A program made the translations under genes and the position numbers. This document shows, piece by piece, positions 50,559-64,000 of a stretch of 64,000 bases of DNA. The stretch spans positions 16,308,001 through 16,372,000 of the forward strand of contig NC_087250.1 of assembly GCF_037042905.1 (NCBI RefSeq), written 5' to 3'. Source of the DNA: Lytechinus pictus. Its lineage: Eukaryota. Under the pieces are notes generated by a model, which made no database searches, had not been told where the DNA came from, and saw nothing but the letters and a program-made list of their open reading frames with translations. The first letter of the stretch is position 1. Each line of letters opens with the position of its first letter.

Positions 50559-52454
50559 CACTACTCAAAAAAAGTTAAGGACCACTTTTTAATGTGTGTA
50601 TACAATTTTCAAACCGGGTGTTGTATTTCTAGAAATACCCGAATATGGCTGTCTTGAATATCCTCAAACACCCTGTAACAATTTCACACATGGGTGGTTT
50701 CAGTTGTTGCATGATGTCTCTCGCATTATTGCATATCCTGAAAAGTGGGCCCATTGTGAAGTGGTACAAATGTGGATTCAAATGCATTTTCTGTCTTTAG
50801 TCTCTACAATCAACAAATTGCTGACAACAGCAATGCCAATATACAGCTGTCCAGGATGCCATCAAACACAATGAAATCAATTTCACACATGCAGTTCTTT
50901 CATGTCTCTTGCATCATTGCAATGTGCCCGTACAAAAGTGGCTTCCAAAGCATTTTCTGTCTTTAGTCTCTACAATCAACAACTTGCTGACAATAGCAAT
51001 GCCAAGATACAGCTGTCCAGAATGCCATCAAACACAATGACATCAATTTCACACATGCAGTTCTTTCATGATGTCTCTGGCATCATTGCAGTGGGCCATA
51101 AGACAAGTGTCTTCCAAAGCATTTTCCGTCTTTAGTCTGTACAATCAACAACTTGCCTACAACAGCAATGCCAAGACACCACCTAAGTGAAACAGATGTA
51201 GCCAGAGCCCTAGGGATGCTGGAAGCTGGCCTCAGTCAGCGAAGAGTAGCCAGAATGATGGGCGTGTCACACAGTGTCATTAGCAGAGCAAATCAAAGAC
51301 ACCGAGAGACAGGGCTATACTCCGAGAGACCCCGCAGTGGCCGACCAGTTTCGACAACCCCTAGAGATGATCGCTACTTGACGAATCTCAGCCTCCGCAA
51401 CCGCTTTCACAGTGCACGCCGCCTCAACAATGACTTCGCTGCAGCAACTGGAGTGATTTTTTCCACTCAAACAATCCGTAACCGACTTCACAGAGCCAAT
51501 ATGCATGCCAGACGGCCAGCTCAGTGTGTCCCACTCACCCCTGCTCACAGAAGAATTCGTCTCAACTGGGCCCGGGAGCATGTCAGATGGACCAGACAGC
51601 AATGGCGTAGAGTTCTGTTCACAGATGAGAGCAGATTTTCCCTTGACCACAATGATGGACGTTCGAGAGTCTGGAGGCGACCAGGAGAGAGATTTGCAGA
51701 CCCCTGTATTGCAGAACATGACCGTTATGGGGGAGGCAGCGTCATGGTGTGGGGAGGCATCACCTACGCCAACCGTACTCGTCTCTACGTGGTCCCAGGG
51801 GGAGCAATGACAGGAGTGAGGTACAGGGATGAGGTCCTTGAACCTATAGTGGTGCCATTTGCAGAAAATGTGGGACAAAACATCATTTTCATGGATGACA
51901 ATGCCCGTGCCCACCGAGCTAGGGTGGTGACCGAGTTCCTTGAGGGCCAGGGGATTGAGCGTATGGAGTGGCCAGCGAGGTCCCCGGACTTAAACCCGAT
52001 AGAGCACGTCTGGGACATGATGGGGAGGAGTCTCGAGCAGCTCGAAGCCCATCCACTTGGACTGCAGCAGCTGGGTGTGGCTCTGGAGGCTGCATGTGAT
52101 GCACTGGACGTCAGAGACATCAATCGCCTCATCAGCTCCATGAGACAGCGCTGTGAAGCCGTTATTGCTGCAGGAGGTGGTCACACTCGTTACTGAACTG
52201 CCTGAAAGACACTCAGACATTCGTTTTTACCACTTCATGTCGGTAGCTGATACCCCTCGGGGCCCACTTTTCAGGATGTGCAGTGATGCGAGAGACATTG
52301 TGCAACAACTGAAACCACCCATGCGTGAAATTGATTACAGCGTGTTTAAGGACATTTAGGACAGTTGTACTGAGGTATTTCCAGAAATAAAACACCTTGT
52401 ATAAAATCTTTATGTACGTTTTAAAAAGTGGTCCTTAACTTTTTTTGAGTAGTG
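50559..52454 (+). mobile_element. Full-length Tc1-family DNA transposon (DD34E), 1896 bp
   Basis: TA on both flanks (50557-58, 52455-56). TIRs begin CACTACTCAAAAAAAGTTAAGGACCACTTTTTAA (outer 34 bp perfect) and stay imperfectly complementary to about 190 bp. Contains an intact transposase ORF. Confidence 0.97.
51168..52196 (+). CDS. Tc1 transposase, 342 aa
   Basis: ATG at 51168; paired-like HTH, GRP linker (RSGRP) and second HTH; catalytic FTDESRF, MDDNARAH and SPDLNPIE with 34 residues between the second D and E; C-terminal GGHTRY. No stops or frameshifts. Confidence 0.97.
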   Translation: MPRHHLSETDVARALGMLEAGLSQRRVARMMGVSHSVISRANQRHRETGLYSERPRSGRPVSTTPRDDRYLTNLSLRNRFHSARRLNNDFAAATGVIFSTQTIRNRLHRANMHARRPAQCVPLTPAHRRIRLNWAREHVRWTRQQWRRVLFTDESRFSLDHNDGRSRVWRRPGERFADPCIAEHDRYGGGSVMVWGGITYANRTRLYVVPGGAMTGVRYRDEVLEPIVVPFAENVGQNIIFMDDNARAHRARVVTEFLEGQGIERMEWPARSPDLNPIEHVWDMMGRSLEQLEAHPLGLQQLGVALEAACDALDVRDINRLISSMRQRCEAVIAAGGGHTRY

Positions 52455-52816
52455 TATATATACAATTCATGCCCATCGCCTGTACTCTTCACATGCTAAC
52501 TAATGAGCTAGATTGCATCCCAGTGCATGATCATCTCATCTATGCTACTGACCGCGATTTATCGCTAATCTCCGAAGAGCGGAGGATCAAAACACAGAGA
52601 GAGAGATGTCACATCCCCACTTGTTCTTTTATATTTTATTATATGAAATTAGGTTTATTCAAAAATGTTCTACCAAGAACTAAAACAATTAGATTGACAA
52701 CTGAATAAATGCATTTATAGTTATTTATTGCTGCAATTTATTTCATCATAATGCACATGTTTTCTGTTTATACATGAACATGTACGAAAAAATGTAACAT
52801 CCATGATTTCATGTAA

Positions 52817-55800
52817 TAGTAGACCGGCCAAAACGATTTTTTATACTTTGGACGGCAAAATTTGTTAATGCTTGCTAATGCTTGGCATCCCAGCTAATAG
52901 TCTTGCAAAATACCCAGGAATAGCGTACGGCCGGATGCCAAGCGCAATTTTGCGTGAAAAAGTCATTTTTAGCGTAAAAACTGAAAGAATGTCGAAAATC
53001 ACGCATTTTGATATTTTGACGGATTATTTTAATATTTTTTATTATCTTTGATATGCATTTATTTTTATTCAAAGTTTCAAATTATAAGTTTCATAAATAT
53101 GCATTTCAAATTTGAATATTACACACACATATATGGCACAGGGAAACATAATACCGCAATTTCCTCAACATAAAAGTTTGTGAAAACTATCAATAGTTTT
53201 TTACGCAACTTAAATTCTTCGATTTAACTGCGTTTATCCATCAAATGTATAGTAAATGTCCTAATGTCACAGATATTACAATAATTTTCAAGTAAGATGG
53301 AATATATCTCATTTTATATTATCCGAAAGGAGACAATGTGCATTTTACCAGGTGCGCATTTTGAAAGAAAAATTGAAAATACCGTACATTATGTACATAA
53401 TTACATGTATAAGTACATACTAAAGCGAGTTTTTAATTACATATATAAGTACACACTAAAGCGAGTTTTTAATTGAATAGCACAATTTGTCAATTCTTTG
53501 CATCCCAGCTCAAATTCTTGCGGAAATACTGAGGAATAACGTACGGGCGGATGCCAAGTGCACTTTTGCGTGAAAGTATCATTTTTAGCGTGAAATCTGA
53601 AAGACTGTCGAAAATCACGCATTTTGATATTTTGACGGATTATCATCATATTTTTGGTTATCTTTGATATGGAATTATTTTTATTCAGAGTTTCTAATTA
53701 TAAGTCTACTAAATATGTATTTCAATTTGGAATATTACACACACATATATGGCAATATGACATTAAAAAATCGTGATTTACTCAAAATAGAAGTTTGTGA
53801 ACACTATCAATAGTTCTAAATTTGTTTACAACTTAAATTCTTCGATTTAAATTGGTTCACCTATTGAATATCTTTGAGCTTTGATTCAAAGCTCACTCAG
53901 AGGCTACCGCATAATTTTTTTGAACCACTATTTAAAACAGTGTGGAGTAAAAAGCAAATTCCAGATGACTGGTCACAAGGTATTATTGTCAAAATTCCAA
54001 AGAAAGGGAACCTGAGAAATTGCAATAACTGGCGTGGAATCACCCTCTTATCGATTGCTAGTAAGATTTTTTCGAAGATAATTGTGAACCGTATAACAAG
54101 TGCAGTAGACCGGCATCTCAGAGAAGAGCAAGCAGGATTCCGCAGAGGAAGAGGATGCCAAGATAGACCAAATATTTGCACTGCGTAACATCATAGAACA
54201 GTGCACAGAATGGCAGAGACAAATGTATATCAACTTTGTCGATTTTGAGAAAGCATTTGACAGCATCCATAGAGAAAGCTTGTGGCGAATACTTTGTTCG
54301 TACGGGATACCAAAGGACATTGTCCAAATTATTAAGAGCTTTTACTCTAACTTTACATGCAACGTTGGAAATAGTGACATAAAATTTGAAGTAAAATCAG
54401 GAGTTAGACAGGGATGTGTCATGTCTGCAATCCTCTTCATTATCACCATTGACTGGGTAATGAGGAAAACTACCGAAGATCACCCGAGAGGTATCAGATG
54501 GTCCATATTTTCCACCCTGGAAGACCTCGACTATGCCGATGATCTTGCCTTATTTTCACATACACACCAGCATATGCAAACAAAGACGACACGGTTGAGT
54601 TAATATGCCCAACAAGTTGGCCTTAAAATTAACGAAAACAAAACAGAGATAATGACATTGAATAACACAAATCCGTTACCAGTACAAGTGAATGGGAAAG
54701 ATGTTTCTACAGCAGAGGAGTTCAAGTACCTTGGTAGCGTTGTCACAAGTGATGGTGGGGCAGAAAATGACATCAGAAACCGTCTGAATAAAGCATATAT
54801 ATCATTTAGAATGCTGAACAAAAGTTGGAGATCACAGCAGTATAGCACAAGAACAAAGCTGAGACTATATCAAAGTTGTGCTCTCTCCACCCTACTATAT
54901 GGATCTGAGTGCTGGAGAATGACGGAGAAAGACCTCCATAAACTGTCAGTCTTTCATTCAAAAAGCCTCAGAAAGACCCTTCAAATTTTATGGCCAAATA
55001 CAATCACAAACGAAGAATTACTTACGCGATGTAAACAAGAGAACATGGGAACCATAATCCTCAGAAGACGATGGAAATGGATTGGACATATCCTTAGAAT
55101 GGATGCCCAGAACATCACCCGTTTAGCTCTCCATGGCCACTGGACCCCCGAAGGGAGAAGAAAGAGGGGGCGGCCCAAGATCACATGGCGCAGAACAGTA
55201 GAGGGAGAACTAAAACACTTAAGGCACACATGGACAACTATACAGATCTTGGCCCAGGACCGACAGAAGTGGAGGACATTCGTTGCTGCCCTACATGCCA
55301 ATGGAGGCATAGCAGGCAGTAATTAAGTAACCTATTGAATATCGATCGTTTCTAATGTCACAAATATTAAAAGAATTTTCAAGTAAGATGGAAGAAATAT
55401 TTTCCGAAAGGGGGCATGCAAAATTTAGCGGGGAGGGGGGGGGGGCATTTTGAATGTAAAATTGAAGATACTGTAAATTATTAACATAATTACATGAATA
55501 AGTACATACTTAAAACGAGTTACAAAATTTCTGGCCACAACTGCCTCTCCCCCCCCCCCTCCCCCGCTGCCTAAAGTCATGTGTAGTGTCCGAAAGGGTT
55601 ACATGGAGCTGAAAGTATCCCGTTTTCAAGATAATATACCACTAGCGTAAAGGGGGGGGGGGGGCAGACTCCCCCCCCCCCGACGAACTTGAAGACCTTT
55701 TTTGCCCCCCCCCCCCATTAACGAGCTTGAAGACCTTTTTTTTGCTTGTCAATTTTTTTGGCCGACGGTTTTGCCCCCCCCCCCCTGAGGAAAATCCTAG

Positions 55801-57061
55801 GTACGCTACTGTTTCTATGATTTTGGATATAGATATTCCTACAAAATTAATGTTACCATGGTAACGGCAAATTAAATATCAGACCTATTTATGAATATCG
55901 CCACAGGTAGATTTACGTTCAGCACCAATTAATTCGCGGAAATAGCAAGAAGATCGAACTCTACAAAAGTAAACATAATCCTACATAATATCATGACGAG
56001 TATCGCACTGATTAATATTAGTATGTGCAATATAGATGTAGTATTGTGATCTGTTTGTATTTTATCAGAAATGCGCATCCGATAAATTTACATTGTTATC
56101 TTTCGCATATATAACATAAAAGGATATATCTTGCATCTTATTTCAACATTTGTTTTCACTATATGTGCCATGACAACAATTATTGTGTATTTATTCGGTT
56201 AGCGCTAAAATTGACGAAATTGAGATGCGGAACACAAACATTATACTATTGATAGTTTTCACAAACTATTATTTTTAGTAAATCACGATTTTATAATTCT
56301 TATTGCCATATATGTGTGTGTATTATTCCAAATTGAAATGCATATTTACTAGACTTATAATTTAATGCAAAGAATTGACAAATTGTGCTATCCAATTAAA
56401 AACTCGCTTTAGAATGCACTTATACATGTAATTAAAAACTCGCTTTAGTATGTACTTTATACATGTAATTACGTACATAATGTACGGTATTTTCAATTTT
56501 TCTTTCAAAATGCGCACCTGGTAAAATGCACATTGTCTCCTTTCGGATAACATAAAGTGAAATTTCTTCCATCTTACTTGAAAATTCTTTTAATATTTGT
56601 GACATTAGGACATTTACTATACATTTGATGGATAAACGCAGTTAAACCGAAGAATTTAAGCTGCGTAAAAAAACATAAAACTATTGATAGTTTTCACCAA
56701 CTTTTATTTTGAGGAAATCGCGGTTTAATGTTTCCCTGTGCCATATGTGTGTGTGTAATATTCAAATTTGAAATGCATATTTATGAGACTTATAATTTGA
56801 AACTATGAATGAAAATAATTGCATATCAAAGATAATCAAAAGTATGATGATAATCCGTCAAAATATCAAAATGCGTGATTTTCGACATTCTTTCAGTTTT
56901 TACGCTAAAAATGACATTTTCACGCAAAATTGCGCTTGGCATCCGGCCGTACGCTATTTCTGGGTATTTTTGCAAGACTTTTAGCTGGGATGCCAAGCAT
57001 TAACAAATTTTGCCGTCGAATCCTTATCTAAAGCACTTTTTGACTTTTGGCCGGTCTACTA
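52817..57061. mobile_element. 4.2-kb non-autonomous TIR element with long inverted arms (Academ-like termini), carrying the RTE insertion
   Basis: TIR TAGTAGACCGGCCAAAA / TTTTGGCCGGTCTACTA; TAA on both flanks (52814-16, 57062-64). A ~615-bp unit occurs twice in the left arm and is inverted at ~56240-57020. Confidence 0.8.
53873..55329 (+). mobile_element. 5'-truncated RTE-clade LINE (RT domain and C-terminus), disrupted
   Basis: IPKKGNL..CNNWRGITLL, EQAGFRRGR, FVDFEKAFDSI, GVRQGC, YADD, RRRWKWIGH, GRRKRGRPK.TWRR. 14-bp TSD ACCTATTGAATATC (53859-72, 55330-43). Frameshift near 54165 and stop at 54601. Confidence 0.93.
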
Positions 57062-59025: not shown

Positions 59026-61021
59026 TTAAAATGTTAACTCAACAATTCGACAAAAAACCCAATCATTTTAGTCAGCCTCATATGGTAGACAAAAAATCAT
59101 TTTCAACAATACTTTGCCTGAGAATGTTGAAGTATCATTAGGGTTAACATAAATTATTTACCAATAACCTGTGAATACCAGTTTGAATCATCTTATTACC
59201 ACGATTACAAAATTTTCAGGTGTATACTCGCTATCATTAATTGTTGTATTGGCACCAGTGATTTTTTTCTCTCTCTCCGTAAAATGCCCTGAACGTATTG
59301 GTGATCATAACCAAAATGTTATGGTATATGTATATTGTGGATGAGGTTCAGCTCTTTTTGTATGCACTACTGTACATTTATAATTAATATTAGATAAGAG
59401 AAGTGGCTGAAAACGGAAAGGCAGAAGAGATACCTTTTTCACTTATGACTTACATAAAAGTCGTAAGTAATATAATTAAAAAATGATACAATTATGAAAC
59501 GATGAAACGAGAAGAGGAAGGGGAGAGGGAAAGCAAGAACATACAAAAGGGAAAACGAAAGGAAATAGGGAAAAGGAAAGAAAAACTCTTGAGAAAAAAC
59601 AAATTATCGTGAAATACTAATAGGCTACTGTTGTGAAAGTTGATTGAAGAAATACATGATTTCTCATTTGATATTGATATGAACTATTGCAGAAACATTA
59701 TTTAATATATTTCATATTTCCATGATGATATAACATATCTCTCTGGTTATGTTTTATAAAAACCTCTGGTCAAATGATTGTATATATAGCACAGTGCATA
59801 TATGTCATTACCAATATTGCTTGTGCAAGGCATTTATTGACATAGCGCCAGCTAGTGTTCTCTCTAGGACAGTGTTTTCCATTGCACCAATCACTGTATA
59901 TAAACATGGAAGAACTGACAGGTTTGAGGTGACACAATCATCCAAGTTCCAGTGAATCCGGGATACCTGGTTATTAATTGTGATACAATAAGGAGGCAAA
60001 GAGGTTAGTGTCTCATAGGAAGTCTTTATTTTATGAAATGATAAATGCTAAAGATGAAAATTAGTTGAATTATTTTAGGTTCTAAATCCAGCTACTGTGC
60101 ATGTAGATTACATAACATTCACACATGTGTTACAAGATTGTCTGTAAGCAAGAAATAAGGTCAAGTCTATAGCTTATACATTGGATCCTCACATTTGAAG
60201 ATGAAATTAAATGATATTGTGATGAATAGGAGCTTCATGTATGTTCACTGAATTTGATATAATTAGTTTACTGAAATAAGATAATTTAGGTTTGTTTTGT
60301 GGAATTAATGACCAGAAAGGTTACAAGGTCAACTGAAAGTCAAGATATGGTAGCTTTATATTTAAAACAGATACACTTGAAGTTATTGATAGTATAGTGG
60401 CAACTCTAATTGTTGTGTAAATCAACGTGTCAATATACATATATTTTATTTATCAGATTATAAGCACATTCCACAATAATTGTTTAGTTTGTTGCTTAAA
60501 GAAAGAGTGAATTATCAGATGATCACCCATAAGTGTGTACAATGTATTTATGATGCTTTTTTGTATGTTTCATTGATACAGTTTTCACGGAGCTTTTGGA
60601 GCTTTTGGAGCTATATCAAAGTTCGAAGATGATTAATCGAAATGAGATAAATCAAGAATAAAGTCTCGAAGCTCCCGTAGAAGCCTTTGTCTGTCTTTCA
60701 TTCATGTGCCTCGAATGCTGTCACAGCTACACTAGCATTTTTGGTAAAAAAGTCAAATAAATGACAAAATTGAACATAAAAGGAAAAGAAAGAGGCAAAA
60801 ATAAGCGGAAAATGAAGGTTAAATGGAATGAGTCAAAAGCTAAATTTGCAAATGAAGAAAAGGGACAAGAAAAAAAAGAGAACTTAAAAACACGACCGGT
60901 CTGCATAGGATTAAAAACGGGAAGAAAAATGTATGCCATATAACACTGTGTATGAAGTCTATTTTAAACTTGATCAATTTAATGCAGTAATGGTCGCAAC
61001 CAGGACAAACAAAGTCCTAGG

Positions 61022-61449
61022 CCCGGGGGGGGGGGGGGGCACACGGGGGCCTTGGAGTGGGCTTATTGTAAAAAGGAGGTTCCTCGGAACGGGCTTCGGA
61101 ACTACAAATGTTTGTGAAAACGGGGGTCCTTGGAACGGGTCGCCTGCATGCGAGTGCGTATATGCATCCCTATGGAACGTGCATGCAGCTAGCCCGGCGG
61201 CACGACTGCCTTGCACGCTAGCGCAGAGGCGATGGTCGGACAGTGAGCTGCTGCCGCTTTTCACCAAAATTGCGACCGGAACAGCGTAACGGAAAATATG
61301 CGAAGCTTTGGAGTAGATTTCTTTGTTCTTTTTCTCAATAAGACAAAAATGCTATGCCTTGGAACGGAAATTTGAGTGTAAAAATGGGGCTCCCCTCTGT
61401 GGCACATTGCATTGTATGCATTATATACTGAGTGTGCCCCCCCCCCGGG
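61022..61449. mobile_element. Unclassified TIR element with CCCGGG(G)n termini
   Basis: CCCGGGGGGGGGGCACAC ... GTGTGCCCCCCCCCCGGG; TCCTAGG duplicated at 61015-21 and 61450-56 (7 bp). Confidence 0.75.
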
Positions 61450-61799
61450 TCCTAGGCCAAGGTCTACACACATCCTCCTATATATGTTATATATCCTACC
61501 TATTAAGTAAGCTTTACGCTGGCAAGAGTTACCGTAAATAGCTTCTTAATGTCTACAATCTCAAAAGCTACCGGGGACTTTGCCCCAGACCTCATGCAGC
61601 AGGGGCGCTTCATCTGTAACCTCCAAAGGGCCCTATATAACGGGGCACCTGTATGGACCTTCCTGCATTGAGCTTTATGTTGAAGCACTGGCGTATATGG
61701 GGTGGGGGGCTTGGTTCCACAGCCAGGGGGGGGGGGGGAGAAAATAATGATGACAAGGACAGGGAATGAATTGGGGGGGAATGAAATAATTATGATATA

Positions 61800-63863
61800 C
61801 ACTACTCAAAAAAAGTTAAGGACCACTTTTTAAAACGTACATAAAGATTTTATACAAGGTGTTTTATTTCTGGAAATACCTCAGTACAACTGTCCTAAAT
61901 GTCCTTAAACACGCTGTAATCAATTTCACGCATGGGTGGTTTCAGTTGTTGCACAATGTCTCTCGCATCACTGCACATCCTGAAAAGTGGGCCCCGAGGG
62001 GTATCAGCTACCGACATGAAGTGGTAAAAACGAATGTCTGAGTGTCTTTCAGGCAGTTCAGTAACGAGTGTGACCACCTCCTGCAGCAATAACGGCTTCA
62101 CAGCGCTGTCTCATGGAGCTGATGAGGCGATTGATGTCTCTGACGTCCAGTGCATCCCATGCAGCCTCCAGAGCCACACCCAGCTGCTGCAGTCCAAGTG
62201 GATGGGCTTCGAGCTGCTCGAGACTCCTCCCCATCATGTCCCAGACGTGCTCTATCGGGTTTAAGTCCGGGGACCTCGCTGGCCACTCCATACGCTCAAT
62301 CCCCTGGCCCTCAAGGAACTCGGTCACCACCCTAGCTCGGTGGGCACGGGCATTGTCATCCATGAAAATGATGTTTTGTCCCACATTTTCTGCAAATGGC
62401 ACCACTATAGGTTCAAGGACCTCATCCCTGTACCTCACTCCTGTCATTGCTCCCCCTGGGACCACGTAGAGACGAGTACGGTTGGCGTAGGTGATGCCTC
62501 CCCACACCATGACGCTGCCTCCCCCATAACGGTCATGTTCTGCAATACAGGGGTCTGCAAATCTCTCTCCTGGTCGCCTCCAGACTCTCGAACGTCCATC
62601 ATTGTGGTCAAGGGAAAATCTGCTCTCATCTGTGAACAGAACTCTACGCCATTGCTGTCTGGTCCATCTGACATGCTCCCGGGCCCAGTTGAGACGAATT
62701 CTTCTGTGAGCAGGGGTGAGTGGGACACACTGAGCTGGCCGTCTGGCATGCATATTGGCTCTGTGAAGTCGGTTACGGATTGTTTGAGTGGAAACAATCA
62801 CTCCAGTTGCTGCAGCGAAGTCATTGTTGAGGCGGCGTGCACTGTGAAAGCGGTTGCGGAGGCTGAGATTCGTCAAGTAGCGATCATCTCTAGGGGTTGT
62901 CGAAACTGGTCGGCCACTGCGGGGTCTCTCGTGTGTGTCCCACTCACCCCTGCTCACAGAAGAATTCGTCTCAACTGGGCCCGGGAGCATGTCAGATGGA
63001 CCAGACAGCAATGGCGTAGAGTTCTGTTCACAGATGAGAGCAGATTTTCCCTTGACCACAATGATGGACGTTCGAGAGTCTGGAGGCGACCAGGAGAGAG
63101 ATTTGCAGACCCCTGTATTGCAGAACATGACCGTTATGGGGGAGGCAGCGTCATGGTGTGGGGAGGCATCACCTACGCCAACCGTACTCGCCTCTACGTG
63201 GTCCCAGGGGGAGCAATGACAGGAGTGAGGTACAGGGATGAGGTCCTTGAACCTATAGTGGTGCCATTTGCAGAAAATGTGGGACAAAACATCATTTTCA
63301 TGGATGACAATGCCCGTGCCCACCGAGCTAGGGTGGTGACCGAGTTCCTTGAGGGCCAGGGGATTGAGCGTATGGAGTGGCCAGCGAGGTCCCCGGACTT
63401 AAACCCGATAGAGCACGTCTGGGACATGATGGGGAGGAGTCTCGAGCAGCTCGAAGCCCATCCACTTGGACTGCAGCAGCTGGGTGTGGCTCTGGAGGCT
63501 GCATGGGATGCACTGGACGTCAGAGACATCAATCGCCTCATCAGCTCCATGAGACAGCGCTGTGAAGCCGTTATTGCTGCAGGAGGTGGTCACACTCGTT
63601 ACTGAACTGCCTGAAAGACACTCAGACATTCGTTTTTACCACTTCATGTCGGTAGCTGATACCCCTCGGGGCCCACTTTTCAGGATGTGCAGTGATGCGA
63701 GAGACATTGTGCAACAACTGAAACCACCCATGCGTGAAATTGATTACAGCGTGTTTAAGGACATTTAGGACAGTTGTACTGAGGTATTTCCAGAAATAAA
63801 ACACCTTGTATAAAATCTTTATGTACGTTTTAAAAAGTGGTCCTTAACTTTTTTTGAGTAGTG
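61800..63863. mobile_element. Palindromic (fold-back) non-autonomous derivative of the same Tc1 family: two right halves head to head
   Basis: 61800-62931 is the reverse complement of 51323-52454 (1132 bp). 62933-63863 equals 51524-52454 (931 bp). TA at 61798-99 and 63864-65. Both termini are the right TIR. Confidence 0.95.
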
Positions 63864-64000
63864 TATAATAAATAATTATGATATATAATGTAAAAAACTA
63901 TCACATAATTAGAATTTCATTTCAATTGGCCATTTTTTTCTGGCTCGCTTTTCTCGCTGGCAACAATATCCCACATTTTCTATATGTGCCACCTCAAAAT

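Follow-up and report, generated by a model that had tools for sequence, protein, structure and literature searches.

A palindromic transposon derivative with two right ends and no left end lies in the genome of Lytechinus pictus, within a stretch of 64,000 nucleotides (contig NC_087250.1, positions 16,308,001 to 16,372,000, forward strand; the whole stretch is hereafter called the window) of an 812-Mb assembly. It raises the question of how such an element came into being, and what has kept it beside the Tc1 transposon from whose halves it is built. The initial annotation regarded it as a candidate mobile silencer, whose hairpin RNA would repress the transposase that spreads it.

The palindromic element and its parent family

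The features of the element and of its canonical relative are given below; window-type copies are those with the junction of the window element, and right-right (R-R) loci are elements with a right end at both tips.

50559..52454, plus strand: canonical left-right Tc1 copy, 1896 bp, TA-flanked
51168..52196, plus strand: open transposase ORF of 342 aa, with Pfam HTH_38, HTH_Tnp_Tc3_2 and DDE_3
61798..61799, no strand: left TA target-site duplication; TA lies beside CACTACTC in 5/5 window-type copies and 46/46 R-R loci
61800..62730, minus strand: left stem arm, the right part of Tc1 (element 966-1896 antisense), complementary to 62933-63863 with one mismatch
61800-61995, minus strand: right TIR (~195 bp), part of the left stem arm
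62731..62931, minus strand: loop, in which the left copy continues (element 765-965 antisense, missing from the right copy), from comparison with 51323-52459
62932..62932, no strand: filler base T at the head-to-head junction; the surrounding junction string occurs at exactly 5 genomic places
62933..63863, plus strand: right stem arm (element 966-1896 sense), with transposase residues ~120-342, 3' UTR and right TIR, from arm comparison
63864..63865, no strand: right TA target-site duplication, with TA likewise in window-type copies and R-R loci
62058..63128, minus strand: 356-aa open frame over the junction, with 66 antisense-frame residues followed by transposase residues 53-342 (second HTH and DDE)
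62535-63605, plus strand: mirror 356-aa open frame, from an antisense-frame start in one arm into the in-frame transposase of the other

A repeat search of positions 61000-64000 returned one inverted repeat, with arms at 61796-62730 and 62933-63867 and 202 nt between them. Each arm measures 935 nt with the TA and two further flank bases, and 931 nt from CACTACTC to its inner end. The 931-bp stem begins with CACTACTC at 61800 and closes with GAGTAGTG ending at 63863, its sole mismatch being 62472 A / 63191 C. In reverse complement, the left copy (61795-62931) matches canonical 51323-52459 with 2 differences in 1137 positions, and the right copy (62933-63867) corresponds to canonical 51524-52458 with 2 in 935; the element is composed of the reverse complement of 765-1896, a single T and 966-1896 of the 1896-bp Tc1. 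These arm starts correspond to transposase residues ~53 and ~120, and both lie downstream of the ATG (element position 610), leaving no complete transposase gene. A chance origin is ruled out by the match of the arms to a 1.9-kb canonical element 9.3 kb away. At 2064 bp the element exceeds the miniature size of well under 1 kb, so that the term fold-back derivative suits it better than MITE.

The arm alignments bear out the anatomy first proposed, namely two 3' halves joined head to head, a 931-bp stem mismatched at 63191, a 202-nt loop, and the absence of the left TIR, the 5' leader and the first HTH. The description of both tips as intact right TIRs of the Tc1 family with TA beside them also stands, whereas the outer sequence is not wholly unrelated, as had been stated: the 16-nt AAATAATTATGATATA occurs in both flanks, because the target was already a 20-bp tandem duplication. 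This duplication (AAATAATTATGATATATAAT, twice) occupies 61780-61799 and 63864-63890.

In the canonical copy, the TIRs are ~195 bp long and imperfect (84% alike, with the terminal 34 nt identical), and the leader contains three ~166-bp repeats at 50736-51179. The transposase matches HTH_38 (2.7e-7), HTH_Tnp_Tc3_2 (4.3e-18) and DDE_3 (3.2e-19), and its catalytic residues D153, D244 and E279, the last two with a spacing of 34, define it as DD34E; two substitutions, at 51459 and 52097, are private to this ORF when compared with the family majority. TA also flanks the canonical copies, and the TA duplications, the paired HTH and DDE domains of the parent copy and the family TIRs are those of Tc1/mariner elements. 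With a divergence below 0.4%, the family is very young, and it has many intact genes.

The closest public proteins to the 342-aa transposase are 99% identical and unnamed, followed by two at 87-89%, the remainder being below 60%. A hypothetical protein from a sea-spider assembly is 91% identical over ~44 aligned residues of a 110-residue query, most named relatives lying at ~50-58%. Among 19 public sequencing runs from 7 studies, 0.83-0.92 of the sampled words were present, with the full set in none, and none of these runs is recorded as RNA. The runs are small (15-147 million letters). In four of them, Logan contigs covered the ORF and the right end with an identity of at least 99%, but a joint with a change of strand at 51323/51524 was not found. 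Contigs at this level of identity came from small runs under eight organism labels (four were aligned), and either close relatives or the horizontal spread of a very young element would account for them.

Within the assembly, the ~280 copies of the family are spaced more closely than expected, with two within 9.3 kb in the window (50559-52454 and 61800-63863) and four within 760 kb on C2 (11.08-11.83 Mb), and further groups on C3 (4.94-4.97 Mb) and C6 (20.05-20.13 Mb); this tight spacing looks like local hopping. The window also contains, at 53868-55326 on the plus strand, reverse-transcriptase frames with a YADD motif, a non-LTR retrotransposon fragment located between inverted repeats of ~0.3-0.8 kb (52907-53754 and 56457-57013).

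Copies of the window type and census of right-right elements

A genome search with a 111-bp junction probe recovered 5 loci at 100%, along with head-to-head pairs of other spacings, and a 25-mer junction string was present at exactly 5 places genome-wide with at most one mismatch (0 for the reversed-pattern control). The five window-type copies are distributed over 5 contigs, are full length (2064-2066 bp), and have TA on either side with unrelated sequence beyond; relative to the window copy they show 1-6 differences (99.7-99.9% identity). The same junction at five TA-flanked sites with different flanks settles the mobility of the element, as had been predicted from the window alone, and excludes an assembly artefact. 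Multiple copies at unrelated TA sites, none with a complete transposase gene, characterise the window type as non-autonomous. Only the window copy has C at 63191; in the remaining four the base is T and the stem is perfect at this position, which indicates that the founder was a perfect 931-bp palindrome. One window-type copy (L002:375-420; C14, ~1.5790 Mb) has another family member beside it, whose right tip is 10 bp away (…TTTTTTTGAGTAGTG TATATATTATATA CACTAC…). Neither the window junction nor the 282/606 junction described below had any match in metagenome scans.

The family was further surveyed with end-specific 26-mers, at most one mismatch being allowed. The right-end 26-mer had 425 matches genome-wide and the left-end 26-mer 131, with 0 for the control of each, a difference which implies ~150 elements with two right ends. 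The census, based on these probes in one assembly, considered the first 100 of the 425 right-end matches and is complete for C1, C2 and C3 up to 63 Mb (~178 Mb, 22% of the genome). These 100 matches were assigned as follows.

Convergent R-R pairs: 37
Left-right copies: 22
Single right-end matches without a left end: 4, comprising 3 R-R elements with a probe mismatch and 1 truncated R-R element

The single right-end matches are thus 26 (22 left-right plus the 4 without a left end), and the ~178 Mb hold 40 R-R elements and one truncated, 22 canonical left-right copies and no left-left (L-L) element. No L-L element was found among the 100 listed of the 131 left-end matches, and scoring of 40 left-end matches gave none either; among the matches examined, L-L forms are thus very rare if they occur at all.

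In total, 46 R-R loci were analysed. All of them end at right-TIR tips with TA, and they fall into 25 junction types, written here as element positions (765/966 being that of the window).

282/606: 12 loci analysed, 27 genomic places
765/966 (window type): 5 loci
243/1107: 4 loci
566/695: 3 loci, plus one truncated copy
213/642: 2 loci
Singleton types: 20 loci, two of them complex

The whole ORF is kept on the long arm in 17 of the 23 simple types, and on both arms in 282/606; across the analysed loci, 36 of 54 ORF starts are open to 342 aa. The loops are 66 to 1299 nt long. The window type is thus among the minority of R-R types that are truly non-autonomous. It had originally been paired with the neighbouring Tc1 as a two-component system, a view that does not hold at the scale of the genome, where the element is one of ~150 R-R copies; these represent at least 25 junction types, the majority with an intact transposase gene. 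Counted by junction, the loci analysed record at least 25 separate origins of R-R derivatives.

The most abundant R-R type, 282/606, is ~2.9 kb long and has two complete transposase ORFs running outward from its centre. Both ORFs are open in 7 of the 11 full-length copies scored (L014, L015, L029, L044, L053, L055 and L056), and, read from its sequence, this palindrome may be autonomous twice over.

Junction scars, formation and end preference

The junctions carry scars of the repair type. Microhomology of 1-8 nt is present at 16 of the 23 simple types (at least 3 nt in 8, in comparison to ~5% expected for random joins) and fillers at 7 of the 23, four of these being 1-5 nt long, although some microhomology and filler values depend on polymorphisms in the reference copy. 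Two fillers are same-strand element sequence from 19-31 nt upstream of the arm start, in which case the arm in effect starts earlier and contains a short deletion. Another filler, at L017:3400-3440 (C5, ~4.5814 Mb), consists of CACGT(CCCTAA)4C, i.e. telomere repeats between the arms. To judge from this sequence, the right arm first acquired the repeats at its inner end (element 672) and was only then fused to the other arm, leaving an interstitial record of telomerase healing within a transposon; the position of the repeats on an inner end indicates a free broken end that was reached by telomerase.

Head-to-head joins with a short asymmetric spacer and microhomology or small insertions are known from fold-back inversions, which arise through break repair, sister-end fusion or breakage-fusion-bridge cycles. 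Such inversions are chromosomal rearrangements, whereas the R-R products described here terminate in transposon ends on both sides and were carried to new TA sites. The scars fit an inverted joining of broken ends, which could have proceeded through fold-back priming, sister-end fusion or gap-repair template switching. The last of these has been proposed as the origin of the Aedes MITE Goblin, whose inversely duplicated 3' subterminal sequence has a microhomology junction with a 1-nt insertion, according to the text available (PMC3814204). Goblin and the PALTA, CeleTc2 and Tc7-type elements of C. elegans resemble the present elements in being non-autonomous and TA-inserting, with long inverted arms that go beyond simple internal deletion; as portrayed in the sections available, they are short (tens to hundreds of bp), old and usually of single origin (PMC3814204). 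Here, in contrast, the arms are 0.1-1.3 kb long and include the transposase ORF, only one end is used, and at least 25 independent junctions are found beside a parent of at least 99% identity. Tc4 is reportedly grouped with the fold-back Tc1/mariner derivatives as well.

Break points are concentrated at element positions 549-716 (window 51107-51274), with 18 of 46 observed and ~4.5 expected in an interval that was picked after seeing the data. The cluster extends from the last part of the leader repeats ~100 nt into the ORF. A hairpin or cruciform was rejected as its cause, the region having two weak inverted repeats of 9-12 nt only and folding no better than shuffled sequences (z +1.87). Similarly, nested insertion at a TA followed by central deletion is not favoured as a general origin: the three types with a long arm in the left TIR stop at 3, 19 and 57, with filler or microhomology there and no exact tip plus TA. 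The short arm never starts upstream of 606 (23/23 types), which is not significant (~0.05 on a simple uniform model).

With moderate confidence, we consider the window element to be a non-autonomous same-end fold-back derivative of a very young DD34E Tc1 family, kept by a transposase that prefers right ends. The window type would have had a single origin, in which a break, followed by fold-back or sister-end fusion through microhomology-mediated joining, brought two right parts together head to head at internal breaks 765 and 966 with one filler base, after which the family transposase would have cut and pasted the product into at least 5 TA sites. The right TIR would be the end that is best bound and cleaved, and, among the same-end palindromes generated by repair accidents, only R-R forms would be efficiently excised and reinserted, surviving and amplifying as favoured substrates.

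The mobilisation of R-R elements follows from their ends: clean TIR tips with TA (46/46), together with unrelated flanks in the window-type copies compared (5/5), mean that they were excised and then reinserted. A repair accident should yield L-L elements too, and products formed in place should have inverted flanks; the observed asymmetry between R-R and L-L therefore points to a filter at mobilisation, of which right-end preference is the simplest form. In Mboumar-9, the left IR is the preferred end. For Mos1 in vitro, the available text reports that two right IRs gave 26-fold more transposition than the natural left-right arrangement and two left IRs 50-fold less, and that the RR construct was excised 15-fold better than LL (PMC4505599). 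These engineered 3'-3' pseudo-transposons (Auge-Gouillou 2001, cited there) are alike in being Tc1/mariner elements with two right ends, and the activity pattern reported in that text matches the R-R excess and L-L absence of the Lytechinus pictus family. They differ, on the same partial source, in being laboratory constructs with 28-bp IRs, whereas the elements described here are natural and recurrent, with ~195-bp TIRs, kb-long arms and a preference that is deduced. Argued from the census and from Mos1, right-end preference of the transposase is the most likely explanation. As the terminal 34 nt are identical in both TIRs, any such preference must sit in the inner TIR. Furthermore, canonical left-right copies are still numerous (131 left ends), and an R-R advantage, if real, is not overwhelming.

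The same asymmetry could be obtained from a one-sided formation mechanism, in which the left end is cut alone, or breaks fall near the leader or the ORF start, and the right fragment folds back or fuses with its sister, the two ends being treated alike by the transposase. Several of the scars are in keeping with this. In six junction types the long arm stops only 3-131 nt short of the left tip, resembling a cut left end that was trimmed before joining, the break points cluster at 549-716, and the telomere repeats show that free broken ends existed. Moreover, differences per 590 nt are slightly fewer between the two arms of an element (1.58) than between arms taken from separate elements (2.64); as a test of whether both arms came from one copy, this contrast is weak because the family is so young. 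An internal break, however, leaves a left fragment too, and yet no L-L element occurs among the 100 left-end matches listed; formation in place predicts inverted flanks, against which stand the clean tips and the unrelated flanks mentioned above. Since R-R elements were mobilised after their formation, selection at mobilisation is needed even if formation was one-sided, and one-sided formation without an end preference is regarded as rather unlikely.

Silencing and protein-level readings, and significance

Right-end preference and silencing can coexist. In the silencing scenario, read-through transcription of the window element would yield ~0.9 kb of dsRNA, and the resulting siRNAs would repress the transposase by which the element itself is spread, making the system self-limiting. 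Snap-back RNA of Tc1 is known to feed RNAi in C. elegans. The foldability anticipated for a read-through RNA was reproduced in the model, the predicted transcript forming 930 in-register pairs at -2092 kcal/mol, in comparison to -758 for a control of the same length. The stem includes the DDE region and is ~99.8% identical to the canonical copies, and the element is mobile. A precedent exists in the Mu killer (Muk) locus of maize, where an inverted transposon duplication silences its family via hairpin RNA; in the text available, this one locus silences MuDR dominantly and heritably, with a 2.4-kb hairpin transcript and siRNAs demonstrated (PMC2563033). The two are alike, as far as that text goes, in that part of an autonomous DNA transposon has been duplicated naturally in inverted orientation and could give rise to a long perfect hairpin RNA (PMC2563033), and the window element is indeed an inverted duplication of transposon coding sequence. 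Muk, however, is a single locus, whereas the element described here is known from DNA alone, is mobile and multi-copy, and belongs to a family that stayed active beside such copies.

Beside the window copy no promoter or host gene is seen, its neighbours being a reverse-transcriptase fragment and repeats, and the window type has lost the leader; the R-R types that keep it would transcribe outward and produce sense RNA only. The ages of the lineages are also informative. Divergence per 930 nt amounts to 2.8 for canonical copies, 3.4 for the 282/606 lineage and 1.5 for the window type. As 282/606, the oldest R-R lineage, is as diverged as the canonical copies, hairpin-capable R-R copies are as old as the present diversity of the family, and the younger window type was born and spread beside them. 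Hairpin-capable copies thus did not stop transposition or the formation of new R-R elements, an argument against a strong, immediate shut-off of the Mu-killer kind, as is the persistence of open frames in 36 of the 54 ORFs examined. A strong shut-off of the Tc1 family is probably not to be expected from these sequences, although partial or late-acting repression would be compatible with them. The silencer interpretation as a whole is doubtful.

A wider version, which we consider still less probable, combines the two ideas. Strong right-end preference would have led to a takeover by R-R elements, including coding palindromes with two intact divergent transposase genes (27 copies), and the ~150 hairpin-capable copies spread by the transposase would be the dsRNA source that ends the burst, the present genome being caught midway through a self-limiting cycle.

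Regulation at the protein level is very improbable. It would require that the 356-aa junction frame, a transposase without its first HTH, be expressed and poison transposase complexes. The frame is open on both strands and continues in frame into HTH2 and DDE, but no promoter is evident, open antisense frames are common in GC-rich coding DNA, and conservation at 99.8% identity is uninformative on selection; moreover, no protein with the chimeric N-terminus was found in the public collection, either by exact look-up or by homology search. Finally, that the palindrome is an assembly or read-chimera artefact of fold-back long reads can be dismissed almost entirely: palindromes are a known artefact of long-read libraries and the junction words are complete in no public run (best share 0.92), but five loci on five contigs have the junction in common together with private substitutions, TA duplications and different flanks, 46/46 R-R elements stop exactly at TIR tips, and runs of 15-147 million letters are too small for a 5-copy junction to be expected in their contigs.

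Fold-back derivatives and same-end hyperactivity are already known; what is notable here is the recurrent, one-sided and amplifying nature of the R-R palindromes, some of which are coding. In open-access text, our search found no account of a natural Tc1/mariner family in which kb-long same-end palindromes predominate. The same-end preference of mariner transposases is known in vitro, and its outcome in evolution seems to be visible here in a natural genome: the left end has been replaced time and again by an inverted right half, to the point that R-R elements outnumber canonical ones (40 vs 22) in the surveyed 22% of the genome. As a young family with intact genes, whose junctions keep repair scars including a telomerase-healed end, it offers a tractable system for studying the origin of fold-back transposons. 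It also lends itself to asking whether end asymmetry drives the rise of non-canonical elements, and whether long transposon palindromes trigger RNA silencing in the animal germline.
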